In this document: positions 6,499 to 31,665 of the stretch, piece by piece
Position numbering within the stretch: the first letter of the stretch is position 1
How the letters are laid out: each line of letters starts with the position of its first letter
Notes under the pieces: generated by a model
The model's database searches: none
What the model was told of the DNA's origin: nothing
The model's input: only the letters and a program-made list of their open reading frames with translations
Translations under genes and position numbers: made by a program
DNA from: Steroidobacteraceae bacterium
Lineage (GTDB): Bacteria; Pseudomonadota; Gammaproteobacteria; Steroidobacterales; Steroidobacteraceae
Assembly: GCA_036390615.1 (NCBI GenBank)
Contig: DASWBL010000057.1
Coordinates: 1-49,241 of the forward strand
Length of the DNA stretch: 49,241 bases
Reading direction: 5' to 3'

Positions 6499-6587
6499 GT
6501 GTCCCTTACCCCTTGTTTATCGAGCGCCCTGCATGGTCCTAGGATTATGCCAGTCGGACGCGCCCGCTGGCGTGGCCGATGTGTCGC

Positions 6588-10497: not shown

Positions 10498-10627
10498 GCA
10501 TCTGGCTCCTTAAATGATGGCGGTTCCTGCGTTTTGAGTACACGCGGCTCGCCGTAGCGATTTGCCAAATACCTGAAGGGCAAATATCCGCCAATGAACC
10601 TGGTCTGGCAATATGCAAAGACTCCGC

Positions 10628-11419
10628 TTACTCAGGGGATGCCAATATCGCGACGGCCTGTTCCCACAGAGCATCGGTTGCCGCCGCCACAACCCGACCG
10701 TCGGAGCCTGCTCCGAGCGGCTTTCCATGCCAGTCGCTGAATTTTCCACCGGCGCCCTGGACCACAGGAATGAGCGCCTGAAAGTCGTGCGGCTTAAGCG
10801 CTGCCTCAATGACCAAGTCGCAGTGCCCCGAAGCCAGCATGCCGTAGAGATAACAATCCCCGCCAAAGCGGCGCAATGCGGCCCGGCTCGTTAGCCGGTC
10901 AAATCGCTGGCGATCCGCCGGGGCAAACGTGTCGGCCGTCGTGGCATAGACCCGGGCTTCTTCGATATTCCGGCAATTACTAGAGCGTACCGCGGCGCCG
11001 TTAAACTGGGTCGGCAGACCCTCACATCCTACCCAGCGCTCATTCAGGGCGGGCGCCTCTATAATCCCGAGTACTGCCTTGTCGCCGAATAGTAAAGCGA
11101 TAAGTGATCCAAAGACGGGAAAGCCGGTGATGAAGCTTTTTGTGCCGTCGATTGGATCAAGAACCCAGGTAAATTCCCCGCCGGCTTCGGCCGCGAATTC
11201 CTCTCCCTTTATGCCGTGCGCCGGAAAAGCGGCGCGGATCATGCGACGCATCTCGGTCTCGATGGTACGGTCCGCAATTGTGACCGGGCTGCGGTCGCTT
11301 TTCCTTTCAACAGCGAGCGGCATGCGAAAGTAGCGGCGGGCGATTTCACGGGCTATATCAGCGAGCTGCCCGGACAATTCCAAGGCCTTGGGAAAATCCG
11401 GGTGCTCAGCGAAACCCAT
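10628..11419 (-). CDS. Inositol-monophosphatase-family phosphatase (HisN/SuhB-like)
   Basis: It has the IMPase signature WVLDPIDGTKSF and the upstream motif SPVTIADRTIE. I place the start at the ATG at 11419 (MGFAEHPDF). The extension to 11515 would run antisense into the divergent kinase gene. Confidence 0.8.
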   Translation of the reverse strand: MGFAEHPDFPKALELSGQLADIAREIARRYFRMPLAVERKSDRSPVTIADRTIETEMRRMIRAAFPAHGIKGEEFAAEAGGEFTWVLDPIDGTKSFITGFPVFGSLIALLFGDKAVLGIIEAPALNERWVGCEGLPTQFNGAAVRSSNCRNIEEARVYATTADTFAPADRQRFDRLTSRAALRRFGGDCYLYGMLASGHCDLVIEAALKPHDFQALIPVVQGAGGKFSDWHGKPLGAGSDGRVVAAATDALWEQAVAILASPE

Positions 11420-11428
11420 AGACCTGAG

Positions 11429-11434
11429 TATAAT
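11429..11434 (+). promoter_or_regulatory. Candidate -10 box (TATAAT) for the kinase-DMGDH-BHMT operon
   Basis: A perfect TATAAT lies 30 nt upstream of the ATG at 11464, inside the 44-bp divergent gap. GGAAGG at 11453-11458 is a plausible RBS. No convincing -35 box was seen. Confidence 0.3.
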
Positions 11435-11463
11435 CAGCAGCCACCTGCTGCGGGAAGGCCAGA

Positions 11464-12357
11464 ATGGCGGATAAGGACGTCTTAGAGACCATCGCCGCGC
11501 TTCCGTGCTGGTCATCGCCGATCGAAGTCCATGCTCTGGTCGGTGGTCTCACCAACCGCAATTTTCGAGTTAACGACCGAGACCGGCAGTCATTCGTCGT
11601 TCGCATCGGACACGATATTCCCGAACATGGGGTGATGCGATTCAATGAGCTGGCGTCGGCACGCGCCGCATACGCGGCCGGCATCACCCCAGAGGTGATA
11701 TACGCCAGCAAAGGCATTCTGGTCAGTCGCTTTATAGAGGGTTCCGTGCTGACGCCCGCGCACGTGCGCGATCCGCAAATGCTCGAACGCATTGTCGCGC
11801 TGCTGCAGCGTTGTCACCGCGAAGTTGCGCAGCACTTTCAAGGTCCGGCGCTGATCTTCTGGGTATTTCAGGTGATCCGCGGTTACTTAACGGTGGTTGA
11901 GGCGCGCGGCGGCGGCCCGACCGGTCCCGAGCTCAAGGTAATGGCCGCTCGGGCAGCGCGGCTTGAGCAAGCCGTGGGCCCGGTGCGGATTGTATTTGCC
12001 CATAACGACCTGCTCGCAGCCAATCTAATAGATGACGGTAAACGACTTTGGCTGATCGACTGGGACTATGCTGGTTTTAACAGTCCGTTGTTTGATCTTG
12101 CCAATTTATCTACTAACAACGAGCTGTCGCCGGATCTTCAGGAGGCGATGCTCAATCAATACTTCTGCGAGCCGATCAACCCCGACGTGCGCCGTGGTTT
12201 CGCTGCAATGCAATGTGCCTCATTGTTGCGCGAGACTTTATGGGCGGCGGTTTATGGGCTCACATCGACCATAGCCTTCAATTACCGCAGTTACGGTGAC
12301 AACTACCAAAAGCGATTCGAGCGCAACTGGCTGGAGTTCGAGCAGCACTATGGGTGA
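11464..12357 (+). CDS. Choline/ethanolamine-kinase-family (APH-fold) small-molecule kinase
   Basis: 297 aa with the N-terminal motif LVGGLTNRNFRV and a Brenner/catalytic-loop block FAHNDLLAANLIDDGKRLWLIDWDYAGFNSPLFDLANL. Its stop overlaps the next gene's start by 8 nt (ATGGGTGA at 12350-12357). Confidence 0.72.
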   Translation: MADKDVLETIAALPCWSSPIEVHALVGGLTNRNFRVNDRDRQSFVVRIGHDIPEHGVMRFNELASARAAYAAGITPEVIYASKGILVSRFIEGSVLTPAHVRDPQMLERIVALLQRCHREVAQHFQGPALIFWVFQVIRGYLTVVEARGGGPTGPELKVMAARAARLEQAVGPVRIVFAHNDLLAANLIDDGKRLWLIDWDYAGFNSPLFDLANLSTNNELSPDLQEAMLNQYFCEPINPDVRRGFAAMQCASLLRETLWAAVYGLTSTIAFNYRSYGDNYQKRFERNWLEFEQHYG

Positions 12358-17999: not shown

Positions 18000-20381
18000 C
18001 TAGCGCTTGGAAGGTTCCAAATTCGTCAGTGCGCGCAACGGTCCGATGTGCTGTTCGTAGTTTCGCCAACGATCTATCGAAGACTTGCTGATTTTCTGTC
18101 GCACCTGCCATTTGCTCGCAGTGGTGACCCTGCGGCTGACCGTATGAAACTCAAGGCAGCGTGGGTCCCACGGCAGCCCGATAAATTCCACCAGCCGTCG
18201 GCTCCAGACTTCGGGCTCATTAATTAATGCTTCATATCGGATTTCGAGCAGTCGGTCTGGCGGCAGCACCGCGCGCCAATGCGCGATCATGCGCAGATAC
18301 TCGGAATAATAGTGCGCCAGATCTTCCAGGTCATTGGCGTAGGGCAGGGCGGTTGAGAAATTCTGGAAGTAGACGGATAGACAGGTATCGATCGGATGAC
18401 GCCGGACGTGAATGATGCGTGCTTCTGGAAGGGCCGCGTGCATCAAGCCCAGATTCATGAAATTCGCCGGCATCTTGTCCACGACCCGCATTGCGTCCGG
18501 CGCTAGGCTTTGAAGCACTTTTAGGTAACCTTCACCAAACGTGGACACCGCGCCCGGACTCGCATTGGTTGCAAACACAGACGACTCGTAGTTCGCCGCC
18601 GCAGTGTTCCAATACGAAAGCTCACCCGCACCGAACCCCGCGGGGTGTGATGCCAGAATCTGCTCGATCAGCGTCGTGCCGGATCGTGGCATTCCAACAA
18701 CGAAGACTGGACGTCGCGCGTTAATGGCCCCGCTACGCTCGCGCTCCAGCCACATCCGATCATAGAGCGCGATCCTTCGATCAACCAGTTGGCTCAGCCG
18801 TTGCCGGTCGTATTTCAGGCCATACTGGCAGACCAAATCATTAGCGCGCCGGTAATTCGCAAAGGCCTGTTCATAATTCTTCACATCATCGAAATACTTT
18901 CCGACTGAGAAGCGCAGGCTGATCTCGTGCCGGACGGGCAATTCCTTGCCGATCAGCCGTTGCGCCGTCGTTAGCCAGTTGGCATCGTTGCTACCCATTT
19001 TCCTGAATCGCGGAATACCGGCCCAAGCGACCGGCAGTTCAGGATCGATAGAAATCGCCTGCCGAAAAAGCCGCTCTGCGCCGGCAAAGTCCCCGCGGTC
19101 CGCAAGGAACTCCGCCATGAACGTGAGCGCCTCAGCATTGTTCGGCGCAATCTCAACCGCCTTGCCGCAGCTTGCCTCAGCCTCATCCGACCGCCCCATC
19201 TTACGCAAGGTCATGCTGAGCCCGAGAAACGCCGTGGCGTATTCCGGCTTCAATGCAAGCGCTTGCCTATAGCTGGATTCGGCCTCAGTCAGCTGCGTCA
19301 GATCCATCAATGCGTTGCCGAGATTGTTGAAAATCTCCGGGAGGGTCGGCTGAAGTTCCAGCGCGCGTCGGAAACAAGTCATCGCTTCCTCAAGTCGCCC
19401 GAGATCGCGCAGGGCGTTACCCAGGTTGCCGTAGACCGCTGCCTGGTCCGGCGCGAGCTCGATTGCCTTTCGGTAGCAGCGCTCCGCTTCACCGGGGTGA
19501 CCGAGCTGCATCTGCAGATTGCCGAGCCTGTTATGAAGCTCAGCCAGATCCGGTCGCAATTCGAGTGCGCGCTGGTAAGCAACAAGTGCCCGGTCTAAGT
19601 CGCCGGAATCGCGCAATGCGTCGGCGAGCCCAATCTGCGCGTCGCCCATCGTGGGATTGAAGTGCAGCGCCCGACGATAGCCCGCGACCGCGTCGGCGCG
19701 GCGTCCGATTTTTATCCAGGCATTAGCAAGGTTTGAGTGTGCCTCGGCAAAGTCGGGCCGCAGCTGGATAGCCTTCTGGTAGCACGCCAACGCTTCGTCG
19801 GTATTGCCGAGCGCTAGCAGCGAGTTGCCAAGGTTGCTATGAGCCTCGGCCATGTCGGGCCTAAGCCGCAAGGCCCTGCGGAAACTCGCCAGTGAATCTT
19901 CGTGCCTACCCAGATCCTGAAGCGTTGAGCCGAGTGCATCGTGCGCTTCAGCAAAATCGGGACGCAGCTGGATCGCTCGCCGATAGGCGTCAGCGGCCGC
20001 CGCGGGCTCGGCACCGTCCTGCATTGCGTTGCCAAAAAAATAATGCGTCTCTGGATCCTCAGGCAGGAGCTGTGCCGCGCGCTGTAATTCGTGCACTGCC
20101 GGCTGTCGCTGCTGCACTAATGCGGCACCCCGGAGCTTCCAAAGCGGGCCGTGCTCCGGGTACTGTCGGATAAGTTCTCCGGCCCGATGGGCTACTTCAG
20201 CGAATCGCCCGTTGTTCATCAGTATGGCGAGATCGCGCAGCTCGGCAGGCGGGGGCGAGTCCGCCGGCGCGGGGCCGCGAGAATGTGACTTGGCTTGCGC
20301 CGGCTCAGCTACCTTACCGCAGCAGTTCTTGTATTTTGTCGAACTGCCGCAGGGGCATGGATCATTTCTTCCGGGTTTCAC
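18000..20381 (-). CDS. SEC-C motif / multi-TPR / sulfotransferase fusion protein
   Basis: 793 aa. The N-terminus carries a SEC-C metal-binding motif (NDPCPCGSSTKYKNCCGK). About a dozen 34-aa TPR units follow (recurring AxxxYxxAlxlxPdxAEAhxNLGN). The C-terminal sulfotransferase domain has the 5'-PSB loop VFVVGMPRSGTTLIEQIL and an RHPIDTCLS block. Confidence 0.85.
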   Translation of the reverse strand: MKPGRNDPCPCGSSTKYKNCCGKVAEPAQAKSHSRGPAPADSPPPAELRDLAILMNNGRFAEVAHRAGELIRQYPEHGPLWKLRGAALVQQRQPAVHELQRAAQLLPEDPETHYFFGNAMQDGAEPAAAADAYRRAIQLRPDFAEAHDALGSTLQDLGRHEDSLASFRRALRLRPDMAEAHSNLGNSLLALGNTDEALACYQKAIQLRPDFAEAHSNLANAWIKIGRRADAVAGYRRALHFNPTMGDAQIGLADALRDSGDLDRALVAYQRALELRPDLAELHNRLGNLQMQLGHPGEAERCYRKAIELAPDQAAVYGNLGNALRDLGRLEEAMTCFRRALELQPTLPEIFNNLGNALMDLTQLTEAESSYRQALALKPEYATAFLGLSMTLRKMGRSDEAEASCGKAVEIAPNNAEALTFMAEFLADRGDFAGAERLFRQAISIDPELPVAWAGIPRFRKMGSNDANWLTTAQRLIGKELPVRHEISLRFSVGKYFDDVKNYEQAFANYRRANDLVCQYGLKYDRQRLSQLVDRRIALYDRMWLERERSGAINARRPVFVVGMPRSGTTLIEQILASHPAGFGAGELSYWNTAAANYESSVFATNASPGAVSTFGEGYLKVLQSLAPDAMRVVDKMPANFMNLGLMHAALPEARIIHVRRHPIDTCLSVYFQNFSTALPYANDLEDLAHYYSEYLRMIAHWRAVLPPDRLLEIRYEALINEPEVWSRRLVEFIGLPWDPRCLEFHTVSRRVTTASKWQVRQKISKSSIDRWRNYEQHIGPLRALTNLEPSKR

Positions 20382-20547: not shown

Positions 20548-21735
20548 TCAGCCCACCCCACTATTTTGTCCCAGCAGGCTGGCAATCAGTTCCTCGCCGA
20601 TTGCAAAGCCTATAGACGCGCCGGCGCCCGTGGTGACGACAGCAATACGGACCGATGCTTCCGGCGTGTCGATCAATACTGATCGGTCAGAAGCGGAGGC
20701 GATCGTTCCCGCCCAGCGGTCGATTGTTGGTGGCGGCTCGATGCCAAGCGCCGCGCGAAATTCGTCGAGAATCAGCGCGTCGACTTCTTCGTGCAGGAGT
20801 GAATCTGGAGTTACCGCGTAGTGGTGGCTGTCACCTACAACAAGGCTGCCATCCGCGTTTTGCGCAACTATGAGGTGGACGCCGTGCCGGAGATGTTCCG
20901 GCTGTTCGACGCCGAGGCGCGCCTTGAGCGGTGCCGCTTCGGCCAGGCTCGCATAGCCAGGGTAACGCGTAAGCCCGAGGTCGGACATGACAGTAGCCGG
21001 TAGCCTGAATCCCGGATCGGCGAGTCTGAGCATCTGCAATTTGCAGCGACTGAGCGAGTACGCGGCCAGCCGCTCCGGATAGAGCGCATTGAAGTCATCA
21101 CCGGGGCAGACTACCACTCGCTCCGCCTGAACGACGCCGCCCGACGTGCGGATGCCGGGCATGTCCACGCTGAGCACCGCAGTGCTGCGCAGAAAAGTGA
21201 CGCCGTGGGCGCTGGCAAGCCACGCCGCAAGTCGTGGAATCGCTTCTCGCGACTCAACCCTAAGCTCAACTGTACTCTCAAGAACCGCCGCCATTCGCGG
21301 TGCAACAAGCTGTGGACAACGGCGTCGCGCCTCGGTCGGACTCAGGAGACGGCAGCCGGCAGCCATCTCAGTCGCCATGAATGCCTCAAGGATTCGCAGC
21401 GACTCAGGCCGGCGGACAACCATCCACAGACCTGATTGAACAACCGGTATAGCGGCCAACTCGGCCACTTCACGCCAGATCTCACGGGTGCGCCGCGCAC
21501 GCTCCCACATTGCCTGGCGCTCCTGGCCGGTCACAGCCACGAAGCCGAAATTTCGAACAGAAGCGCCGTTCGCCTGCGCATCGCGATCAATTACAAGTAC
21601 TCTTAAGCCGCGTCGCGCGCCCGCCAAGGCCGTGGCCAATCCAACAATACCGGCACCAACCACGGCCAGGTCAAAACGCTCGGATATCAGGCCCGAAGAA
21701 CGATTTTCCCTTGTGCGTCTACCGGGCGAATCCAC
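20548..21735 (-). CDS. DAO-family FAD-dependent oxidoreductase (TIGR03364/HpnW-like, phosphonate-transporter-associated type)
   Basis: 395 aa with a GTG start 3 nt after the upstream permease stop. It has the Rossmann motif DLAVVGAGIVGLATALAGARRGLRV followed by GASVRNFGFV, which I recall as typical of TIGR03364. It is the last gene of the ABC importer operon. Confidence 0.72.
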   Translation of the reverse strand: MDSPGRRTRENRSSGLISERFDLAVVGAGIVGLATALAGARRGLRVLVIDRDAQANGASVRNFGFVAVTGQERQAMWERARRTREIWREVAELAAIPVVQSGLWMVVRRPESLRILEAFMATEMAAGCRLLSPTEARRRCPQLVAPRMAAVLESTVELRVESREAIPRLAAWLASAHGVTFLRSTAVLSVDMPGIRTSGGVVQAERVVVCPGDDFNALYPERLAAYSLSRCKLQMLRLADPGFRLPATVMSDLGLTRYPGYASLAEAAPLKARLGVEQPEHLRHGVHLIVAQNADGSLVVGDSHHYAVTPDSLLHEEVDALILDEFRAALGIEPPPTIDRWAGTIASASDRSVLIDTPEASVRIAVVTTGAGASIGFAIGEELIASLLGQNSGVG

Positions 21736-21738
21736 CGC

Positions 21739-22599
21739 TCAGGCTTCCTGGCGTCGGCCTCGGCGAACAAGGGTCAGGGCCAGTATTGCCGACGCTACCA
21801 TCAGGAACAGACTGACTGCATTCAGCACTGGCGTAGCGCCTTCGCGCATTCGCCCGTACATCATGATCGTCAGTGGGGCGTCGGAGCCAACCAGCATCAG
21901 CGTCGTATTGAAGTTTTCAAAGGACATCAAAAAGGCGATTGCCGCCGCGCCAATCATTGCTGGCCGCAGATAAGGCAGCGTCACTGTTCTCAGGACCGCG
22001 GTGTTTGAAGCGCCCAGATTAAGCGCGGCTTCCTCCAGTGTGAGGTCGAAACGCTTCAGTCGCGCACTGATCGTGAGCGTCGCAATGGCGGCAATGTAGG
22101 AAAACTGGCCTAGGACGACGAGCGGCAGGCCGGGACGCAAAAAATCCAGATCTAATCCGAACAGGTCACTGCAAAGGTCGGCGATACGGCTCGCAAAGGC
22201 CAGAATGGAAATGCCAAGAATCACACCGGGAATCACCAGCGGCGCGAGCATCAACATAGACAACGCGCCTTTGCCCGGAAATGTGGCACGCTCCATCAAA
22301 AACGCATTGGCGGTGCCGACGAGCACCGACAGCACCGTGACCCACAAGGCAACGGTACAGCTGGTCCAGATGCTGCCAAGCAATTCCTGATCGCCGAATA
22401 ATCCGGTGCGTCCGCCAGCTTCATTGCCGAGAAACCAATCGAGCGTAAAACCATGCCACGGCGGGGCCGGGTAGGGGGCGTCATTGAACGCAAAAATCGC
22501 GACGATCAACAGTGGCAGGAACAGGAAGATCAAAAACGCGGCCAGGTACAGTGCGGTCGCAGCCTTCAACCAGGCGGGTCGTGGCAAAGTCGGAATCAT
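21739..22599 (-). CDS. ABC transporter permease (PotI/PhnV-like)
   Basis: 286 aa, about 6 TM, with an EAA-loop region LEEAALNLGASNTAVLRTVTLPYLRPA. Its ATG overlaps the upstream permease stop (ATGA at 22596-22599). Confidence 0.85.
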   Translation of the reverse strand: MIPTLPRPAWLKAATALYLAAFLIFLFLPLLIVAIFAFNDAPYPAPPWHGFTLDWFLGNEAGGRTGLFGDQELLGSIWTSCTVALWVTVLSVLVGTANAFLMERATFPGKGALSMLMLAPLVIPGVILGISILAFASRIADLCSDLFGLDLDFLRPGLPLVVLGQFSYIAAIATLTISARLKRFDLTLEEAALNLGASNTAVLRTVTLPYLRPAMIGAAAIAFLMSFENFNTTLMLVGSDAPLTIMMYGRMREGATPVLNAVSLFLMVASAILALTLVRRGRRQEA

Positions 22600-23480
22600 G
22601 TGCGGCGCATGACGTCGCTGAAGCGCTGGCCACTGAGTTTTAGGCCCAGCCAGACCATGGCGGTCGACAGTGCCAGCAACAGAAAGCCGAAGGCCGCACC
22701 CTGCTCCCAGTTAAAGCGGGTAATGAACTGCGTGTAGATCTGCTCAGTGAACCATTGCGAGTTCTTTCCACCCAGCAGAGTCGGAGTCAAATAATTGCCT
22801 AGGGTCAGCATGAATACAACGATGCAGCCGGCGGTAATGCCAGGTGCCGCGTGCGGGATGATTATTTCGCGCAGGATCGCCCAGCCCTTGCCACCTAGGT
22901 CGTATGCGGCCTCGATCAGCGCGTTGTCCAGGCTTTCGAGGCTTCCTACCAGCGGCACGACCATGAACAGCAGTGACGTGTAGACAAGGCCGACGAGAAT
23001 GGTAGCGTTGTGGTAAAGCAGCTCCACCGGCTGATCGGTCAGGCCAAGGTACGCAAGCAGGTGAGGCAGAACTCCTGATTCGCGCAGCAGGATCATCCAG
23101 CCGAGCGTACGCACTGTCTCGCTGACCCAGAACGGGATCAGGCATACTACAAACAGCAAAGCACTCGTGCGCCCGCGCGCGAGCTTGGCAATAATCCAGG
23201 CGATCGGGAAGGCGATCAGCAGTGTCAAGGCCGTGGCAATCGCCGAGATAATGGCCGTCCGGACAAACACGTGCCAGTAAAGCGGTTCGTGAAAGAAGTT
23301 GCGGTACTGCGCGAGGCTTGCCACGTATTCGCGCGGCGCGACTCGCTCTCGAAACGACAATAGCGCCAGATCAAAGTGCGGCAGCACGATCAGCGCAAAC
23401 AGCCAGAGCAGCGCCGGAGCCAGCAGTAGTCCGAGCACCAGGCGCCGGTACCAGGCAGATGTCGGCATGGCCTCAAGCAT
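22596..23480 (-). CDS. ABC transporter permease (PotH/PhnU-like)
   Basis: About 6 TM, with an EAA-loop region LIEAAYDLGGKGWAILREIIIPHAAPG. I place the start at the ATG at 23480 (MLEAMPTSAWY), overlapping the ATPase stop by 8 nt. The ATG at 23468 is an alternative start. Confidence 0.85.
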   Translation of the reverse strand: MLEAMPTSAWYRRLVLGLLLAPALLWLFALIVLPHFDLALLSFRERVAPREYVASLAQYRNFFHEPLYWHVFVRTAIISAIATALTLLIAFPIAWIIAKLARGRTSALLFVVCLIPFWVSETVRTLGWMILLRESGVLPHLLAYLGLTDQPVELLYHNATILVGLVYTSLLFMVVPLVGSLESLDNALIEAAYDLGGKGWAILREIIIPHAAPGITAGCIVVFMLTLGNYLTPTLLGGKNSQWFTEQIYTQFITRFNWEQGAAFGFLLLALSTAMVWLGLKLSGQRFSDVMRRT

Positions 23481-24606
23481 TTGCGCCCGCAGCGGCGAAG
23501 CAGATCGCCTGTTCCGGGTCAAAGCTGAAATGAATGTGATTGCCAACTTGCAGATCCGCAAAAGCGCCTGTCTGTGGCAATGCGATGCGAAATTCGAACT
23601 GACTTCGTTGTTCCTTGAGCAGTACCGCAGAATTCGCCCCGTCGAATAACAGGCTTACGACCTCGCCGCTGTGTTTCTGCTGCCCGGACGGCAGTTCTCC
23701 GGGTGCTCGCCCGAGCGTCGTCGCCTCGGGTCGGATGAAAGCCTCTACCTTTCCGCCGATCGCAATCGCGCCGTGGCTTCGCGCTCTTATTAGCCAGCCG
23801 TCGGCGGTCTCTACATCTACCAGCGATCCATTAACAGCGACTGCCTTGCCGGCCAAGCGGTTATTGGCGCCAACGAAACCGGCGACAAACGACGTGGCGG
23901 GTGAATAGTAGAGTTCCTGCGGTGTGCCGAGTTGCTCAAAGCGGCCGCGGTTCATCACACCGACGTGATCGGATAAGACCAACGCCTCGGACTGATCGTG
24001 CGTGATGTAGACAAACGTCGTGCCGAATGCGGCCTGCAACTGCTTCAGCTCTATCTTCATGTGTTCGCGCAATTTCAGATCCAGCGCCCCGAGCGGTTCA
24101 TCCAGCAGCAATAGCGTCGGTTCAAGCACGAGACTGCGGGCGATAGCCACCCGCTGCCGCTGGCCGCCGGAAAGTTCATCAACCCGCTTGCCGCCAGCGC
24201 CCCCGAGACTGACCCGCTCCAGCATTGCATCGGCGCGTCGCATGCGTTCGGCGCGTCCCACGCCGCGCCGCGCCAGCCCAAAGGCAACGTTTTGGCGCAC
24301 TGACATCATCGGGAATAGGGCAAGTTGCTGGAAAACCATATTGACTGGGCGCCGGTTAGGAGCGACGCCAGCCATGCTGCGACCACCGATCGCGATATCG
24401 CCTGCGTCCGGCTGAATGAAGCCTGCGATCATCCGTAGCAAAGTCGTCTTGCCGCAGCCGGAGGGTCCAAGAATCGAAAAGAAGCTGCCGCGGGCAACGC
24501 TGAAGGACAGGTCGTCAACCGCCACGTGGGCGGCAAAGCGTTTGCCGACGCTACGGGCTACCAGGTCTGGCGCCGCGTTTGCGCCAGCTGTCGCCGGACT
24601 GCTCAA
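23473..24606 (-). CDS. ABC transporter ATP-binding protein (PotG/PotA/PhnT-like)
   Basis: It has Walker A GPSGCGKTT, the signature LSGGQRQRVAIARSL and Walker B LLLLDEPLGALD, plus a C-terminal regulatory (TOBE-like) domain. The start is uncertain. The ATG at 24678 would overlap the binding-protein gene by 75 nt, so I prefer the TTG at 24606, which forms TTGA with that gene's stop. Confidence 0.88.
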   Translation of the reverse strand: MSSPATAGANAAPDLVARSVGKRFAAHVAVDDLSFSVARGSFFSILGPSGCGKTTLLRMIAGFIQPDAGDIAIGGRSMAGVAPNRRPVNMVFQQLALFPMMSVRQNVAFGLARRGVGRAERMRRADAMLERVSLGGAGGKRVDELSGGQRQRVAIARSLVLEPTLLLLDEPLGALDLKLREHMKIELKQLQAAFGTTFVYITHDQSEALVLSDHVGVMNRGRFEQLGTPQELYYSPATSFVAGFVGANNRLAGKAVAVNGSLVDVETADGWLIRARSHGAIAIGGKVEAFIRPEATTLGRAPGELPSGQQKHSGEVVSLLFDGANSAVLLKEQRSQFEFRIALPQTGAFADLQVGNHIHFSFDPEQAICFAAAGANA

Positions 24607-25664
24607 TCGGCCGCCTTTATCCGGTCGAGTACACCGCCTTCGATTTCTTCGAGTCCCGGCGGAATTGCCGGATACCACTTTATGTTCTTCATACCGTCCG
24701 GAAAGCTGACTGCAAATTGTGCGCGCAACTTCGGATCCATCAGCAGATCAGCCCCTTTGGACGCCGTAAAATTGCCAATGGATTTGCCAACCTTAGCCGC
24801 GTTTTCTGGGCGCATCACGAAATTGATCCACGCGTACGCGCCCGCTTCATTGCGGCCACGCGCCGGCAACGCGAAAGTGTCCAGCCAAGCGATTGCCCCC
24901 GACTTGGGGTTAATAAACTTGATGTCGGGATTTTCACGGTTCAACGCCCATCCCCCGGAGTCCCACATCATGGCTGCATCTATCTCCCCCGACCGCACGC
25001 CATTAAGCAGCTGGTCCTTATTGTCATAGAAAAACCGGAAATTGACCTTGCACGCAGTAAGAGTTTTGCCGACCGCTTCCATCAGCGCCGTGTAGGCCTT
25101 GATGTTACCGTACAGAGCAAATGGATCCTGTCCGGAGGCCAAAGCAAAGGCCATCAGGGTTGGCCGCTTCAGCCGCACCGCCGTCTTGCCTTTTAGTTGC
25201 GGTTTACAAAGATCCGTGTAGTCGCCTATCTGGGTGCGTTTGGAGTTATAAACCAGGCCCTCCGTACCCCAGACGTAGGGCAGACCGTAGAGCTTGCCGT
25301 CGATGGTGGCGTTCTTCTTAACGGTGTCGACTAACTCCGGCACGAATTCGTCAAGTTTTATCTTGCTGACATCGAACGGCTTGTAAATTCGAAATTCCTG
25401 TTGGGCGCCCAGAATCCGATCCTGCGAAGGCTGCGCCAGGTCAAAACCAGCTCCGCCCGTAGCCCGCAATTTTGAAATCATTTCCTCGTTGTTTGAAAGC
25501 GTCACTTCGACCTGAATGCCGGTCTCCTGCTTGAATTGCGCTATCAATGCCGCGGGAACGTAATCGGCCCAGCTGATGATCCGCAGCACTTTTGCATCAT
25601 CAGCGCGCGCCGGCGAGGCAATGACGCAGCCCAGTGCTAGCAGGACGGAAAGTGTGCGCTTCAT
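24603..25664 (-). CDS. Periplasmic substrate-binding protein, PotD/PotF/PhnS family
   Basis: 353 aa with a signal peptide (MKRTLSVLLALGCVIASPARA). Family-typical blocks are LRIISWADYVP, NNEEMISKLRATGGAGFDLAQPS and AAMMWDSG. It is the first gene of an SBP-ATPase-permease-permease operon. Confidence 0.83.
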   Translation of the reverse strand: MKRTLSVLLALGCVIASPARADDAKVLRIISWADYVPAALIAQFKQETGIQVEVTLSNNEEMISKLRATGGAGFDLAQPSQDRILGAQQEFRIYKPFDVSKIKLDEFVPELVDTVKKNATIDGKLYGLPYVWGTEGLVYNSKRTQIGDYTDLCKPQLKGKTAVRLKRPTLMAFALASGQDPFALYGNIKAYTALMEAVGKTLTACKVNFRFFYDNKDQLLNGVRSGEIDAAMMWDSGGWALNRENPDIKFINPKSGAIAWLDTFALPARGRNEAGAYAWINFVMRPENAAKVGKSIGNFTASKGADLLMDPKLRAQFAVSFPDGMKNIKWYPAIPPGLEEIEGGVLDRIKAAD

Positions 25665-25955
25665 GAATGCTCCGGACGCCGGCCAAACTGGCCAGCTGTT
25701 GCAAGAGGAAGAGATGTTCCGATCAACATTTGCTCTAACCTATTGAAATTATGCAGAATCGAAGTTCGGCTCAGCCTGCGCGATTATAGTTTGCCGTCCG
25801 CGCTAACGTCGCCGCCCTCGCCGAAAACTGGCCCGCGGACCTTTGGCTGAGGATAGTTTTAATAGGACATCACGGCAATAGCCCACCGGCATCGACCTGT
25901 ATCGCCTCCCTTATATATGAGCCCCGTGCCGTCTTGTCCGCCGATTCGCAGCCAT

Positions 25956-27260
25956 TTAATTGGCCGGGGCGGTCTCCCGTGCCAATTCAAGTCCGTGGCC
26001 GCTCGGGCCGCTTTCACGCCGCCAAAGCAAGACTACTGAAGCGAGCGCAGTAAGGCTTAGTAAGCCAAAAAACCAAAGCATCGTCGTGTACCCGGCCGGG
26101 TGCGCGGGTCCGGCGCCAGCCTTGTCAGCCAGCCAACCGGCGAGTCGATTGGAGCCCCATAGCCCGACGTTTTGCAGCAGCGTGATGATGCCAAGCGCGG
26201 TACCAAGTCGTTTGGGGTCGACAATGATCGTCGTCGCTGGCCAGATAACTGCCGGCACAAGCGAAAAACTTACGCCCATGAGGACCGTTGAAATCCACGG
26301 ACTCCAATCCGTGACCCCCAGCACTACAAACGTAACCGGCAGAAGTATTGTTCCAAAAGTCAGCATTAGCGCACGGTGACCGAAGCGGTCTGCCAGCAGG
26401 CCGAAAAACGGCGTTGCGATAATTGCCGCCGCAAACACGCCGGAATTGACGCTCCCGGCCTGCTGCAACGTCAGGTGTTTGGCGTGCTGAAAGTATTCAA
26501 TTGCGTAAGTCTGTCGGAACGGAAAAAACACCGCAGCGTACAACACATGCAATCCGAGGATGTACCAGTATGAAAGGTCAAATCTCCAGATATCGGACCA
26601 ACTCAAGCGTTCGCGCTTGGCTAGGCCCGCGGCCACCAGCGCTATGCGTCGCGAATCGAGCAGCCGAAATAGTATGGTAGCGGCGAGACCCGCACCCGTA
26701 ATTGCTGCGCCGAGCCACAAGGGCTGCTGCCAGCCAGCGTCGTAAAGCGGCCGCGCCCAGGTGGTCGAAGTGTCAAGCGAGAAAGACCCAACCCGGGCAA
26801 GACAGAGGAATAGCGAAAGGGCGAGAGCGACCCCAGTGCGCGAAAACCATTGCGCCACGCCGGCCACGAGCGAGATAAAGATTGCGCCTTCGCTCATGCC
26901 AAATACGAAGCGGCCGGCCCACATCAGATCATAGGTTGTGCCGATAGCGGTCATGACGGCGCCTACGAAGCCGATAATGGCTGCCCACAACGTTACGCGC
27001 GCCGGACCAAAGCGATCGATAAGCAGTCCGTTGATCAGAGCGAGCGGAATGTTTGGAAGACTGATTACGGCCGTCAGGTCACCGATCTGGTACTGACTGA
27101 AGCCGCGTTGGCGTCCGAGCAGGTCGGCAATGGCGCCAATAACGTCCGATTCGTAGTAACTGCTGAAAATCGCAGTTGCCGCAAGGCCGAGTGCCAACCA
27201 GCGCAAGGGCGAGGTTCCGCGGCCGTCTTCATGTTCCGCGCCCGCGACGGCGTGACTCAC
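25956..27260 (-). CDS. MFS transporter (substrate unknown)
   Basis: 434 aa with about 12 TM. Its GTG start overlaps the stop of the upstream flavoprotein gene (GTGA at 27257-27260). An MFS loop motif-like segment GLLIDRFGPARV is present. Confidence 0.78.
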   Translation of the reverse strand: MSHAVAGAEHEDGRGTSPLRWLALGLAATAIFSSYYESDVIGAIADLLGRQRGFSQYQIGDLTAVISLPNIPLALINGLLIDRFGPARVTLWAAIIGFVGAVMTAIGTTYDLMWAGRFVFGMSEGAIFISLVAGVAQWFSRTGVALALSLFLCLARVGSFSLDTSTTWARPLYDAGWQQPLWLGAAITGAGLAATILFRLLDSRRIALVAAGLAKRERLSWSDIWRFDLSYWYILGLHVLYAAVFFPFRQTYAIEYFQHAKHLTLQQAGSVNSGVFAAAIIATPFFGLLADRFGHRALMLTFGTILLPVTFVVLGVTDWSPWISTVLMGVSFSLVPAVIWPATTIIVDPKRLGTALGIITLLQNVGLWGSNRLAGWLADKAGAGPAHPAGYTTMLWFFGLLSLTALASVVLLWRRESGPSGHGLELARETAPAN

Positions 27261-28621
27261 TGGAATCGTGCGCCTTGACGCGAAAGTTCCTTGTGTACCG
27301 CGCCGATGTCGAGCCGGTCGAACGCCTCATCTCGCTTCAGGGAGACAGCGGCCGCGACGCCCGCGCCTTGGCCGCTGACGGCGCAGCACATCATGTTGCG
27401 GGCCGAGGCATGCGAAATGTTGTCGCCGCCGATGCAGCGGCCGGCAACCAGCAGGTTGCCGACCCCCCTTGGAACCAGCGCGCGATACGGCACATGCCAG
27501 TATCGGCCCGTGGTGGGCAGGATCAGGATACCGTAGCCGTCTATGAATTCAGGAAAGATACCGATCGCGTCGTCAAAGCGCGCCTGCTCGCGCACGTCGG
27601 TTCCGGTAAGGTTATACAGCGCGTCGATCTTGCGTGTGTCGCGAACGCCAAGAGTCATCCCGAAATTACGCAGCTTCGCATCCTCACAGCCCGGCATGAA
27701 TTTTTTAAGCGCTTCAATTGCGAAGATAGCCTCACGGCGGCCGCGAATCTCGCCGGTCGTCAGGTCGTGCGGATCGGTGCCATCGATCTCGGGCACATGC
27801 ACGAGATTGAGGTAGGTCAGATCCCCCTGGTCCGTCACAGTGCCCCATGTACCGGCGATCGTTTTCAGGTAAGGCGGTATGAGCCCGGCTTCAAGCGCTT
27901 TCTGGAAGGGCTTGCGCAAGAACGGCGAGAACATCTGGTCTTCCTTGCCGGTAGTCTCGTAATCCCATTCGCCGTTGCCTGACCAGTCGGCATAGGTTTG
28001 CGGATCAGCCTTGACTGCGTCAATGAAGCGCCGCTTGTTGACACCGGACATGGAGAACATGACCGACACGGCCATCATTTTCTCCTTCGGGTTCTTGTGA
28101 TACGGCGCCCCGGCTCGCGCAGCAATGTCAGCATCCCCGGTGGCATCGATGATTCGCTTGGCGAGGATCGCCTCCCGGCCAGCCTTGCTCTCGGTGATGA
28201 CGCCGCGGATCACGCCGTTCTCCATGATGGGCGCAACGCCGAGTCGATGTAACATCGGCTTAACACCCGATTCCTCCACCAGTACGTCTGCCACCCATTT
28301 GAACATTTCTGCATCGAGAGCGTGGCTAAGCGACTGCGGCTCCGGCATTGCCGCGCCCATCGCTTTGGCGCGATTCTCAAACTCGATGCCGATCCCCTCG
28401 CAGTCCACCGTGTGCTCGTGTCGGTACCAGGCAAATCCTTCAACACCGACCTGCGTTATATTGCCGCCAAAGCAGCCATTGCGATCGATCAGCGCCGTGT
28501 CAACACCCGCGCGCGCGGCGGCGAGCGCCGCAGCGAGACCGCCAGGACCGCTACCCACGACTAATACGTCAGTTTGCAGAACGACGTCGACTGACCGGGC
28601 CGGTTCAGAAATTTTTTCCAT
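27257..28621 (-). CDS. FAD-dependent oxidoreductase, PF12831 (FAD_oxidored) type
   Basis: 454 aa with the N-terminal dinucleotide fold DVLVVGSGPGGLAAALAAARAGVDTALIDRNGCFGGNIT. The C-terminal block VAGRCIGGDNISHASARNMMCCAVSGQGAGVAAAV is typical of this family. It starts 35 nt downstream of the HD gene. Confidence 0.78.
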   Translation of the reverse strand: MEKISEPARSVDVVLQTDVLVVGSGPGGLAAALAAARAGVDTALIDRNGCFGGNITQVGVEGFAWYRHEHTVDCEGIGIEFENRAKAMGAAMPEPQSLSHALDAEMFKWVADVLVEESGVKPMLHRLGVAPIMENGVIRGVITESKAGREAILAKRIIDATGDADIAARAGAPYHKNPKEKMMAVSVMFSMSGVNKRRFIDAVKADPQTYADWSGNGEWDYETTGKEDQMFSPFLRKPFQKALEAGLIPPYLKTIAGTWGTVTDQGDLTYLNLVHVPEIDGTDPHDLTTGEIRGRREAIFAIEALKKFMPGCEDAKLRNFGMTLGVRDTRKIDALYNLTGTDVREQARFDDAIGIFPEFIDGYGILILPTTGRYWHVPYRALVPRGVGNLLVAGRCIGGDNISHASARNMMCCAVSGQGAGVAAAVSLKRDEAFDRLDIGAVHKELSRQGARFQ

Positions 28622-28656
28622 GCAAACAGTTATCCTCGAATTTCAAGCGAAGAGTG

Positions 28657-29235
28657 TCAGGCACGGGATGCCGACTTCGGAAGCTGGCTGGCTAAACGGT
28701 CAATTAACTCTGCGTAGTCCGTGAACACAGGTGTATGTAGTCCAACGACCTTGCCCTGGTCGTCGCATTTGCGGAGCAGGACCGACTGGCGACCGAATCG
28801 CTCAGCCTCAAATGCCGCCACTTCGGACTGCGACATCGGGCCTCCCTGGAGTTTTAGGGTTATTACGGACGCCGGGCTTAGCTGTGCAAAATAATCGGAA
28901 TCGGTCGCACAAAGGTAACGCTTTGCCGGCACGTGCAGACGGACAGGCTCGGACACTTCAGCGCCGAAGCGCGCAGCCAGCCACCGGCTGCCGCTCAATT
29001 CATGATGCGCGTCGGTCTTCCAGTCGGCTATGTCCTCCGGCGCCGGCTCGATCAAATGTCCGATATCGTGCAGAAGCGCAGCAAGTACGAGCGAATCGGG
29101 AGCTTTGGCAGTGCGCGCAAAATATGCCGCCTGCAGTGAATGTTCGGTTACGGTTACTGCCTCGCCAAAATAGGCCGCGGCACCTCCGCGCCCGTAGATC
29201 GCCAAAATCTCATCCGCTGTAGTCATAATTGTCAT
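28657..29235 (-). CDS. HD-domain protein, PhnZ-like (TIGR03276-type mixed-valent diiron oxygenase candidate)
   Basis: 192 aa. The ordered ligand-like motifs are TEHSLQAAYFA, AALLHDIGH, HHELSG, VRLHVPAKRYL, LKLQGGPM and RKCDDQGK. They match in spacing and wording my memory of PhnZ (..LEHSLQCAYFA..ALLHDLGH..HV.AKRYL..QGGPM..WDE.GK). Its ATG overlaps the upstream MFS stop (ATGA at 29232-29235). Confidence 0.72.
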   Translation of the reverse strand: MTIMTTADEILAIYGRGGAAAYFGEAVTVTEHSLQAAYFARTAKAPDSLVLAALLHDIGHLIEPAPEDIADWKTDAHHELSGSRWLAARFGAEVSEPVRLHVPAKRYLCATDSDYFAQLSPASVITLKLQGGPMSQSEVAAFEAERFGRQSVLLRKCDDQGKVVGLHTPVFTDYAELIDRLASQLPKSASRA

Positions 29236-30572
29236 CCCGCACGCGCAGCCGCTCTGGCTTCGAGGCGATGCAGATAGGCAGCCCCGATGGCAGCGATCAG
29301 GCTGACGACGGCAAGGCCGCCAAACACGACTTTCCAGCTGAATTCAGTCTGGACGCGCGCAACTGCGTAACCCGCAAGCACTGCGCCTGCATATCCAACG
29401 CCGTCGATGAGCCCTGAGGAAAGCGCGGAGCCCTGCTTACCGCCAAAGTCGAGCGCGAAGGCGCCGCCGAGATAGGAGTAGGGACCTAGAAGGCAGAACG
29501 CGGCCGTGCCGATCGCTACCAGCGGCAGTCTCGGTCCCACCAGGCTCGGCTGCAGCCAGGTCAAAGCGAGCAACGCAGCGGCGGTGGCGAACAGGCCGAA
29601 TGCCATGACGGTCGCGCGACTATTGGCGCCGAGTCGATCGCTGAGCCAGCCCACCGCTATAACGGATACCGCGCCGACGGCGGGGAATACCGCGCTCGCA
29701 CTGGCAGCGCCGCTGTTGCTGTAGCCGAAGTAATCGCGCAGATACAAAGGGGTCCAGGAATTGAAGGATTCGCGTATGACCGTGCAACCGAGCGACAGCA
29801 CGCAGACCAACAGGAAGGCTCGGCTCTTCAGCAGCGGCATTACCAGCGCGGCGATACTCGGCGGTTTGGCGGCAGCATCGCCATATAGATTAAGTGGATT
29901 TGCCTTCGCCTCTGGAAATCCTGCCTCAGTGCGAGACTCTCGCAGCAGCAGCAGATTGGCGATCAGGAAAAACCCGGCCACCGCAGCCGCCAGATAAAAA
30001 AGTGCCCGCCAGTCATATCCCTCGTGGATCAGCAGTGCCATCCACTGGCGGGCGGCCGCGTCGCCTATCAGGTAACTGATGCTCAGAATCCCGACGATCG
30101 TGCCGTGCGAAGTGAAATCGAACCACTTCGACGATACCTTTATCAGGCCAGCCCAGGCTAGCGACTGAGTCAGGCGGTTGCCCAGCCACGCGATTGTAAA
30201 GATTGGCAGACCCCCACCGAGCGTAAAGAGCAAGGTAAATACGGTAGCTCCACCGACACCAATCAGAAAATTGATTCGGCCGCCCCAGAAGTCGCCGAGT
30301 CCGGTCAGAAACAGCTTGCCTAATGCATACGCCAGCACGCCGAGCGACGTAATTTCGCCGATACGCAGAATACCTTCGGCACGATTAATGCCATGAGCAC
30401 CCAGCTCGTCGACCAGCATGGGCGTGGCCACGGAAAGATCGGCTCGACAAAAATAGCAGGCCGCATACCCTCCAAATAGGAGCGCGACAACCAGGAATTG
30501 GCGCGTTGCTAGCGATCGCGCAGAGCGCTTTGCGCGCGACCCGCTAACGTCGGAGTCCTGCGTATCGCTCAT
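29232..30572 (-). CDS. MFS transporter of the organophosphate:phosphate antiporter (OPA; GlpT/UhpT/UhpC-like) family
   Basis: 446 aa with about 12 TM. The N-terminal pattern FLVVALLFGGYAACYFCRADLSVATPML and the following GVLAYALGKLFLTGLGDFWGGR parallel the GlpT pattern (GYAAYY..R.N...A.P.L ... Y...K...G..SD). Confidence 0.75.
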   Translation of the reverse strand: MSDTQDSDVSGSRAKRSARSLATRQFLVVALLFGGYAACYFCRADLSVATPMLVDELGAHGINRAEGILRIGEITSLGVLAYALGKLFLTGLGDFWGGRINFLIGVGGATVFTLLFTLGGGLPIFTIAWLGNRLTQSLAWAGLIKVSSKWFDFTSHGTIVGILSISYLIGDAAARQWMALLIHEGYDWRALFYLAAAVAGFFLIANLLLLRESRTEAGFPEAKANPLNLYGDAAAKPPSIAALVMPLLKSRAFLLVCVLSLGCTVIRESFNSWTPLYLRDYFGYSNSGAASASAVFPAVGAVSVIAVGWLSDRLGANSRATVMAFGLFATAAALLALTWLQPSLVGPRLPLVAIGTAAFCLLGPYSYLGGAFALDFGGKQGSALSSGLIDGVGYAGAVLAGYAVARVQTEFSWKVVFGGLAVVSLIAAIGAAYLHRLEARAAARAG

Positions 30573-30614: not shown

Positions 30615-30661
30615 GGTAATTCTATGGAGGTATTTGATATTCCGCTAAGGTAATTTTATGG
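30615..30661. promoter_or_regulatory. Pair of 13-bp direct repeats (GGTAATTCTATGG / GGTAATTTTATGG) in the promoter region of the MFS-HD-flavoprotein operon
   Basis: The repeats lie at 30615-30627 and 30649-30661 with 12/13 identity and a 34-bp centre-to-centre spacing. They sit 43-89 nt upstream of the MFS start (30572), in the divergent gap shared with the gene at 30811. Confidence 0.4.
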
Positions 30662-30810: not shown

Positions 30811-31665
30811 ATGAGCCAACCTCGGATTCTGGTGATCGACGGGAATCGCGCAGCGATTAGGGAGCAGCAGGTAGCCGCCGGTGGCCAGCCGACCGGCGAA
30901 GCGTATGTACAGACACTTCAGCGGTTGGCGCCGGTGGCTTGCGATATCGTCCGGCCCGCCGATGGTGAAGTCCGCCTGCCATCTGGAGCCGGCCTCACCG
31001 ATTACGACGGCATTGCTATCACCGGATCGGCGCTCAATATCTATGACGGCGGCGAACATATTGAAAGACAGGTAGAGCTGGCGCGCGCCGTGTTTGCCAC
31101 CGCTGTGCCGTTCTTCGGCAGTTGCTGGGGGCTGCAGGTAGCCGTTACCGCGGCGGGAGGACGCGTACGAGCCAATCCGTTGGGCCGCGAGTTTGGGTTC
31201 GCGCGCCGCATCGAGCTCGGCGAGGCGGGTCGTACTCACCCGATGTACAGAGGCAAGCCACCGGTATTTGAGGCGGTCACAGTTCATCGCGACGATATTG
31301 AGCAGTTGCCGGCCGGCGCGGTGCCGCTGGCAGGCAATGACATGGGATTACAGGCGGTCGAATTGCGCTTCGGCCGTGGCATTTTCTGGGGGGTCCAATA
31401 CCACCCCGAATACAGCTATGCCGAGATAGCGGCGACTGCCGTGCGATATGCAACGGTGCTGACGAACGAGAAATTGTTCACCGGCCGCGCCGAACTGGAA
31501 GCGTTTGTGTCGGAGCTACGCCAGCTCCAGCAAAATCCTTGGGATCGGCGGCTAACCTGGAAGCACGGACTTGGTCTGGCAATGCAGGATGAACGGATCA
31601 AACTTGCGGAATTGCGTAACTGGCTGGAGTTGCAGGTCACTCCTTTCTATCAGCGACGACATTGA
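30811..31665 (+). CDS. Class-I glutamine-amidotransferase-like protein (stand-alone GATase1 domain)
   Basis: 284 aa with a nucleophile elbow FFGSCWGLQV and a His-Glu pair in WGVQYHPEYS. No synthase domain is attached. Confidence 0.72.
   Translation: MSQPRILVIDGNRAAIREQQVAAGGQPTGEAYVQTLQRLAPVACDIVRPADGEVRLPSGAGLTDYDGIAITGSALNIYDGGEHIERQVELARAVFATAVPFFGSCWGLQVAVTAAGGRVRANPLGREFGFARRIELGEAGRTHPMYRGKPPVFEAVTVHRDDIEQLPAGAVPLAGNDMGLQAVELRFGRGIFWGVQYHPEYSYAEIAATAVRYATVLTNEKLFTGRAELEAFVSELRQLQQNPWDRRLTWKHGLGLAMQDERIKLAELRNWLELQVTPFYQRRH

Follow-up and report, generated by a model that had tools for sequence, protein, structure and literature searches.

How is an aminophosphonate used by a genome that encodes the oxidase for the first catabolic step and, as far as it is assembled, none of the recognised enzymes for the second? 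This question is raised by a five-gene operon at 20548-25664 on the minus strand of DASWBL010000057.1, whose 49,241 nucleotides (nt) are called the window here. The operon joins an ATP-binding cassette (ABC) importer to a flavin adenine dinucleotide (FAD)-dependent aminophosphonate oxidase of the PbfD type. Aminophosphonates constitute a large reservoir of organic phosphorus, both in soil and in the sea. To our knowledge only four hydrolytic routes for 2-aminoethylphosphonate (AEP) are known, all of which lead via phosphonoacetaldehyde to PhnX or to PhnY/PhnA. Our answer is tentative, with a chance that we put a little below even: the operon would serve the uptake and the first step of AEP and N-methyl-AEP utilization, and the partner that cleaves the carbon-phosphorus (C-P) bond, PhnX or PhnY/PhnA, would be encoded elsewhere, in a part of the genome that is not assembled.

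The five genes follow each other in the order substrate-binding protein (SBP), ATPase, permease, permease and flavoenzyme. The SBP (24603-25664) is a periplasmic protein of the PotD/PotF lineage. Its stop codon is overlapped by an in-frame TTG (TTGA, 24606-24603), the likely start of the ATPase (23473-24606; Pfam domains ABC_tran and TOBE_2), whose longest open reading frame (ORF) reaches 24678. The likely ATG start of the PotB/PotH-like permease 1 (22596-23480; ORF extending to 23561) and the ATPase stop share 8 nt (ATGCTTGA, 23480-23473), and the PotC/PotI-like permease 2 (21739-22599) overlaps permease 1 by ATGA at 22599-22596. A gap of 3 nt (21738-21736) precedes the flavoenzyme (20548-21735), for which GTG 21735 is the sole possible start. 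An initial annotation of this DNA had given the same gene order, three overlaps and gap, and direct reading of the junctions bore out every detail. Judged from these junctions, the five genes are one operon, in which a PotABCD-type importer would be translationally coupled to a PbfD-type FAD oxidase.

The flavoenzyme had been noted to resemble the TIGR03364 clade. It matches the NCBIfam hidden Markov model (HMM) of this family with 403 bits over model positions 2-365 (cut-off 285.1), and no other clade of the DAO family comes near, the next families being ThiO (56 bits) and N-methyltryptophan oxidase (50 bits). Proteins annotated as TIGR03364 belong to the PbfD group, whose members are oxidases that convert N-methyl-AEP, and in the case of PbfD2 also AEP, to phosphonoacetaldehyde; in the PbfD2-PhnX pathway the aldehyde is then hydrolysed by PhnX (Zangelmi et al. 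2023, iScience, PMC10590968). The window PbfD is 58-77% identical to 80 genomic relatives. Its nearest orthologues (74-77% identity) sit in pbfD-phnX pairs, and from this identity activity on N-methyl-AEP/AEP is predicted. In a quick IQ-TREE tree, built without ten rows that had read-through stops or matched only over a short stretch, it lies inside a clade of 24 rows, mostly phnX-linked sequences (Shimodaira-Hasegawa-like approximate likelihood ratio test, SH-aLRT, 99); the PbfDs without phnX are scattered over the tree. At near-invariant columns the window PbfD deviates once, and two other phnX-less lineages deviate at 9 and 7 columns.

The gene contexts of relatives were rebuilt by tblastn and our own ORF calling. 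The 80 genomic loci with a PbfD relative belong mostly to Steroidobacteraceae and Caulobacteraceae, some to Mesorhizobium. A phnX gene (TIGR01422, 314 bits) directly follows pbfD in 71 of them and in 59 of the 67 metagenomic loci with enough downstream DNA (combined 130/147). In the window this position is taken, 166 bp downstream of PbfD, by a SEC-C/TPR/sulfotransferase flank (18000-20381, minus strand; Pfam). Two metagenome contigs, both without phnX, align collinearly with the window (84-91% nucleotide identity): L166 runs from the 3' end of the ATPase gene over the two permeases and PbfD to the TPR sulfotransferase, and L167 from PbfD over the sulfotransferase to an amino-acid permease, a BHMT-like and a DMGDH-like gene. 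The sulfotransferase flank itself is collinear in both (84-86% identity). Since it recurs in these two independent contigs, the arrangement does not stem from misassembly. The ratio of nonsynonymous to synonymous substitution rates (dN/dS, omega) of the window pbfD against L166 and L167 is 0.125-0.157 at a dS of about 0.41-0.43, which falls within the range of phnX-linked pairs (0.08-0.19). PbfD has thus been under purifying selection since the phnX-less arrangement arose.

Compared with the PbfD2-PhnX pathway, the window has the same enzyme family, likewise no PhnW, and its nearest orthologues in pbfD-phnX pairs. It differs in that phnX is missing both in cis and from the assembled genome and that pbfD ends an ABC importer operon instead of being paired with a divergent DUF5690 gene. 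This gene, for a membrane protein of about 434 amino acids (aa) (PF18943; e. g. L013:8548-9852(-)), is the commonest divergent neighbour of pbfD-phnX, lying upstream of pbfD in 47/80 genomic and 29/80 metagenomic loci, and its product is a likely candidate for an aminophosphonate transporter. In the window the ABC importer occupies its place.

The absence of PhnW, PhnX and PhnA, as noted in the initial annotation, holds for the window and for the whole metagenome-assembled genome (MAG; G000), which comprises 2.50 Mb in 332 contigs and is 86% complete; its kin have about 3-4 Mb. In the MAG the best match for PhnX has 34 bits, and tblastn with the PhnX of a relative found nothing; the sole match for PhnX-like (TIGR03351) is a generic HAD protein with 36 bits; PhnA gave no match at E <= 0.001; the highest-scoring PhnY-like aldehyde dehydrogenase reaches 321 bits (PhnY cut-off 636); and neither PhnW nor PhnJ was found. 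PbfD is syntenic with neither phnX nor phnY/phnA in the window or the MAG. The other PbfD lineages without phnX all have a PhnA (more than 580 bits in every lineage examined), encoded within about 1.5-2.5 kb of PbfD in G013, G034 and G100 and elsewhere in the genome in G002-G005. Their solution is the known PbfD-PhnY-PhnA pathway of the Luteolibacter luteus type (PMC10590968), from which the window genome differs in having no PhnA and no PhnY above the cut-off. A new route shared by the phnX-less lineages was therefore rejected. Among the PbfD lineages examined, only that of the window has neither PhnX nor PhnA; and because all the other phnX-less ones carry PhnA, a known phosphonoacetaldehyde consumer is the rule.

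The importer had been described as having the PhnSTUV/PotFGHI gene order. An identity as PhnSTUV is not supported. The SBP has no match to the PhnS or PhnS2 models at E <= 0.001, and its NCBIfam scores are 127 bits for PotD (cut-off 582) and 113 bits for PotF (cut-off 636); its best Pfam match is SBP_bac_8. The ATPase is ambiguous between families (PhnT2 311 bits, cut-off 457.7; PotA 305, cut-off 482; PhnT 268, cut-off 499). Permease 1 scores 174 bits for PotB (cut-off 348) and 64 for PhnU (cut-off 283), permease 2 107 bits for PotC (cut-off 326) and 70 for PhnV (cut-off 359). All subunits thus remain far under both the Pot and the Phn equivalog cut-offs. An AlphaFold (AF2) model of the SBP (predicted local distance difference test, pLDDT, 90.7) finds PotD/PotF as best Foldseek matches, with template modelling (TM) scores of 0.75-0.80 to 1pot, 8y5i and 6yec at 24-27% identity, whereas Salmonella PhnS (4r6y, 16% identity) comes only at rank 32 and the gamma-aminobutyric acid (GABA) receptor Atu4243 at rank 42.

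In a phmmer alignment the SBP keeps the aromatic box of PotD (W34, Y37, W229, W255) as well as S83 and the proximal acids, with D257 unchanged and E36 turned into D. The acids D168 and E171, which in PotD bind the distal polyamine nitrogens, are replaced by P168 and M171 in this sequence alignment of about 27% identity. Nine residues are invariant in 12 SBP orthologues (W32, Y35, S80, R83, R164, R167, W234, D235, W260), and of these R164 and R167 lie near the substituted positions. The pattern points away from a polyamine and towards a ligand that combines an ammonium head with an anionic tail. With the Escherichia coli PotABCD and PotFGHI systems the importer shares the fold (TM about 0.8), the potFGHI gene order and the aromatic box with D257; it differs in its scores below cut-off, the replaced D168/E171, the invariant R83, R164 and R167, and the coupled phosphonate enzyme. 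The known AEP transporters are PhnSTUV, AepXVW and AepSTU, with FbpA-like SBPs (PF13343), and AepP, of the OPA family of the major facilitator superfamily (MFS) (Murphy et al. 2021, PMC8316502). The window importer is presumed to share their ligand class, and an MFS protein encoded near the operon (29232-30572) is of the OPA family like AepP, whereas the window SBP is an SBP_bac_8 protein of the PotD/F lineage. Our literature searches found no aminophosphonate or phosphocholine binder of the PotD/F type. As a candidate open to testing, the SBP would represent a new class of binding proteins for aminophosphonates or phospho-amines that arose from the polyamine PotD/F lineage.

The distribution of the components was surveyed in 75 other species representatives of the GTDB genus, all Steroidobacteraceae MAGs (the loci L010, L011 and L014 are from G085, G089 and G093). 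The SBP is present in 34/75 genomes, PbfD in 16/75, PhnX in 16/75, PhnA in 19/75, a PhnZ/TmpB-type HD oxygenase in 37/75 and a TmpA-like protein in 40/75; the unpublished genome G010 is counted once each among the SBP-, HD-, TmpA- and PhnA-positive genomes. The SBP occurs together with HD (29/34 versus 8/41 genomes, Fisher 9e-9) and with PbfD (14/16 versus 20/59, Fisher 1.5e-4), in tests that are uncorrected for phylogeny and treat kin that are not independent. Kup failed as a marker of relatedness, being a multi-copy accessory paralogue. In congeners the importer is placed elsewhere, beside genes for GDPD, a PF04185 phosphoesterase, a Na/Pi-PhoU transporter, MTTB, and DMGDH-like and sarcosine-oxidase-like proteins. 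The GDPD, phosphoesterase and Na/Pi-PhoU genes among these neighbours tie the importer to phosphorus scavenging.

The most likely course of events is that the importer takes up a small zwitterionic amine, most likely AEP and its N-methyl forms, and that PbfD, by its orthology to characterised enzymes, would oxidatively deaminate it to phosphonoacetaldehyde, ammonia or methylamine, and H2O2. That the consumer of the aldehyde lies in the unassembled part of the genome is favoured because 17 of the 19 congeners with a window-type SBP (at least 73% identity) are PhnA-positive and because of the small size and incompleteness of the MAG.

The window is a mosaic. In blastn it falls into separate homology blocks with breakpoints at gene borders: the blocks of PbfD (20571-21692), an MFS gene (25978-27230), the flavoprotein and HD genes (27318-29227) and the HD and second MFS genes (28739-30526) are homologous to the islands of relatives, the importer block (21770-25605) only to the importers of congeners. 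Accordingly structured origins can be proposed for the two parts: the importer would derive from one subclade of the genus, the PbfD and HD/MFS modules from islands of the order MFS-TmpA-HD-x-PbfD-PhnX. Homologues of the sulfotransferase (44-50% identity) also flank phosphonate loci in G074 (L247:5861-8038), G097 (L163), G103 (L164) and L041-L057; in G074 the neighbour of the 44%-identical TPR sulfotransferase is a phnW-phnA-phnY (phnWAY) cluster, whose PhnW has 521 bits to PDB 7e7g. The loci flanked in this way differ in content (phnWAY, TmpAB-PbfD-PhnX or the window island) and mark a variable hot spot. On the other side of the window island, divergent from the HD operon, lies a class-I amidotransferase-like gene (30811-31665, plus strand; GATase/Peptidase_C26). 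Its orthologue in G091 (L246:9975-10829; 70% identity) is the last gene of a phnW-phnA-phnY-HAD-MFS cluster, which suggests that the gene belongs functionally to phosphonate clusters. The window island thus looks as if it occupied the same hot spot, between the sulfotransferase and the amidotransferase-like genes.

Directly upstream of the importer operon and on the same strand, as had been noted, lies the HD operon; the spacer (25665-25955, minus strand) measures 291 bp and may hold an internal promoter. A promoter and terminator scan of it, which we judged uninformative, gave no terminator-like or sigma-70-like site, and blastn found no nucleotide homology of the spacer to relatives. The HD operon consists of an MFS transporter (25956-27260; Pfam), a PF12831 flavoprotein (27257-28621; Pfam), the putative HD diiron oxygenase (28657-29235) and the OPA-family MFS protein, all on the minus strand. 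The HD protein scores 192 bits against TIGR03276 (cut-off 214.6) and 182 bits against TmpB (cut-off 300), and aligns with PDB 6npa (TmpB, 128 bits) and 4mlm (PhnZ, 97 bits), the metal ligands H/HD/H/H/D and the Tyr-Glu pair being in register with both. No 2-oxoglutarate (2OG) dioxygenase (TmpA or PhnY*) is found beside it in the window. A TmpA gene adjoins HD in G066, G078, G097 and G103, and in congeners it stands between the MFS and the HD genes. The MAG has a TmpA-like 2OG dioxygenase in trans, split at model position 223/224 over two contig ends (C80:1-636(-) and C6:2-421(+)), with 200 + 131 bits for NF049936 (cut-off 400) and 140 + 114 for BBOX; a divergent HD protein of 196 aa (C6:442-1032(+); 24 bits to PhnZ) is translationally coupled after it. 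A second oxidative C-P pair may thus be encoded in this genome, along with a hydroxylase that could serve the HD protein of the window in trans. The presence of HD did not discriminate phnX-less genomes, since nearly all PbfD-positive genomes have it.

Trimethyl-AEP is degraded oxidatively by TmpA and TmpB (Rajakovich et al. 2019, as reported in PMC10574752). The window resembles this system in that its HD protein is nearest to TmpB and that congeners have TmpA-HD pairs in the same island; it differs in that TmpA is missing in cis. The islands of G097 and G103 read MFS-TmpA-HD-x-PF12831 flavoprotein-PbfD-PhnX, that of G078 (L162) TmpA-HD-flavoprotein-PbfD-PhnX, and that of G066 (L165) MFS-TmpA-HD-enolase-like-PbfD-PhnX; an island of the same MFS-TmpA-HD-PbfD-PhnX kind is also present at L169, and each of these arrays lies on one strand. 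The congener islands unite the oxidative route for trimethyl-AEP with the hydrolytic route for N-methyl-AEP and AEP, a combination not described in the literature examined. Together these modular TmpAB and PbfD-PhnX islands of Steroidobacteraceae span the whole N-methylation series of AEP.

The initial annotation had seen the two operons as one aminophosphonate locus with a non-canonical wiring, in which the HD oxygenase was the only C-P-active candidate at hand. As congeners place HD and PbfD in a single array, the shared island stands. For a wiring from PbfD to HD we see no support: PhnZ/TmpB chemistry requires a 1-hydroxyl (PMC10574752), and phosphonoacetaldehyde has none. The usual partner of HD in relatives is TmpA, that of PbfD is PhnX or PhnY/PhnA, and the window has neither in cis. 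The HD oxygenase would more plausibly provide a parallel route for 1-hydroxylated or trimethylated analogues than consume the product of PbfD.

Several observations weigh against a module for AEP uptake and oxidation whose partner is merely unassembled. None of PhnW, PhnX, PhnX-like, PhnY, PhnA and PhnJ is found in the window or the 86%-complete MAG. G089 has a second phnX island, and its counterpart site in G000 is contiguous (C89) and empty. At the hot spot, G074 and G091 have phnWAY and other genomes pbfD-phnX; the window has neither there. The importer is beside pbfD in 0/80 genomic loci and in none of all 159 other loci except L166, from a close relative, and orthologues of the SBP (48-62% identity) stand among housekeeping genes in eight other gammaproteobacterial families. 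A search for Pho boxes of the E. coli pattern was negative in both promoter regions, with no enrichment relative to shuffled sequences. A repeat of 13 bp that lies 5' of the HD operon (30615-30661) does not recur upstream of the SBP gene, and no shared operator was found. Finally, the co-occurrence counts carry no phylogenetic correction.

The first of these points can also be taken at face value. The lineage would then truly be without the known phosphonoacetaldehyde consumers and convert AEP to phosphate independently of PhnX and PhnA by unknown chemistry, possibly that of the PF12831 flavoprotein and/or of HD. The known enzymes are found nowhere in the assembled genome, purifying selection acts on PbfD in three independent assemblies with the same phnX-less junction, the hot spot is taken by the window island instead of phnWAY, and the second phnX island of G089 is missing from its contiguous syntenic site. 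The flavoprotein, moreover, directly adjoins PbfD in several islands: it stands between HD and PbfD in G078, G097 and G103. The same islands, however, carry PhnX and TmpA too, which argues against the flavoprotein as a replacement; HD would need the 1-hydroxyl that phosphonoacetaldehyde lacks; all other phnX-less lineages have PhnA; and the MAG is incomplete. We regard a true absence as unlikely. Its most far-reaching form, a selected PbfD in this soil Steroidobacteraceae lineage without PhnX, PhnY/PhnA and C-P lyase that feeds an undescribed fifth AEP route, with the flavoprotein or HD as candidates and a PotD-lineage SBP with an arginine pocket as the supplier, seems to us distinctly improbable. 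Still, a PbfD that is maintained by selection without a recognised downstream enzyme either marks where pathway reconstruction from MAGs reaches its limits or hints at missing chemistry, and the case would become far more interesting if the absence of the known enzymes were borne out by a closed genome.

Further observations concern the flavoprotein. Together with its MFS neighbour it recurs near PbfD in 13/80 loci with 77-90% identity. It is 87-90% identical in L032, L034, L039 and L045 despite a PbfD identity of only 62-64%, which indicates either an unusually strong conservation of the flavoprotein-MFS pair or a recent transfer. The ESM Atlas describes it only as "FAD oxidoreductase / IbeA family".

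A C-P enzyme would not be needed at all if the importer carried a non-phosphonate amine (a polyamine, phosphocholine, phosphoethanolamine, GABA or a betaine-type compound) and PbfD had drifted to it. The PotD/PotF lineage of the SBP speaks for this, as do its distant orthologues, which are stand-alone importers among housekeeping genes, and the GDPD, phosphoesterase, MTTB, DMGDH and sarcosine-oxidase-like neighbours in congeners. Yet the window PbfD is 74-77% identical to phnX-linked orthologues, with a deviation at one near-invariant column only, and we regard this reading as quite unlikely. In its polyamine form, a plain polyamine importer with an amine oxidase as considered in the initial annotation, it is further disfavoured by the replacement of the distal acids of PotD and by the three invariant arginines.

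It is also very unlikely that the module serves nitrogen scavenging only, with PbfD releasing ammonia or methylamine and the phosphonoacetaldehyde being disposed of by reduction, oxidation or export, its C-P bond intact. Genes for methylamine and betaine catabolism abound in the genome, no C-P enzyme was detected in the MAG, and other bacteria can use AEP in a way that is insensitive to phosphate (PMC8316502). On the other hand, a reactive aldehyde would build up and phosphorus would be wasted, and the other neighbourhoods of the importer are those of phosphorus scavenging. We know of no precedent for a nitrogen-only use of aminophosphonates of this kind. That PbfD is a decaying remnant left when a rearrangement removed phnX is scarcely credible, even though the mosaic breakpoints lie at gene borders and phnX is gone where 71/80 relatives have it, because the ORF is intact, covers the full HMM and is translationally coupled to the importer, and because it departs at a single conserved column and has an omega of 0.13-0.16 (dS about 0.4), in the range of phnX-linked pairs.

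Elsewhere in the genus single components seem to be decaying. The SBP gene of the importer is split with one TGA in G034 (C6:608643-609624) and looks pseudogenised, and so does phnA in G094 (C4:1458724-1459927, split) and in G098 (C5:14665-15773, fragmented with TGA stops). Modules for phosphorus scavenging appear to be gained and lost quickly in this genus.

In the closest relatives an enolase-superfamily (MR_MLE) protein is encoded between HD and PbfD (L011:5289-6488, L014:8497-9996, L010, L018, L021, L165); its best matches are weak, to sugar-acid dehydratases, and it is not present in the window. Farther along the window, a minus-strand cluster at 4777-11515 encodes an IMPase-family protein, a glutamine synthetase (GS)-like ligase, an aldehyde dehydrogenase, an Fe-alcohol dehydrogenase and a PF04185 phosphoesterase (AcpA/PLC-like). 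Its aldehyde dehydrogenase was rejected as PhnY (212 bits versus the cut-off of 636). The cluster resembles a pathway in which an amino alcohol set free from phospho-headgroups would be gamma-glutamylated. Many congeners encode the HD oxygenase as a fusion with a C-terminal HAD-phosphatase-like domain (414 aa; L128:802-2046(-) in G020), with a TmpA-like gene (334 bits; L128:2043-3185(-)) directly upstream, and a free-standing homologue of this HAD domain (62% identity) follows phnY in G091.

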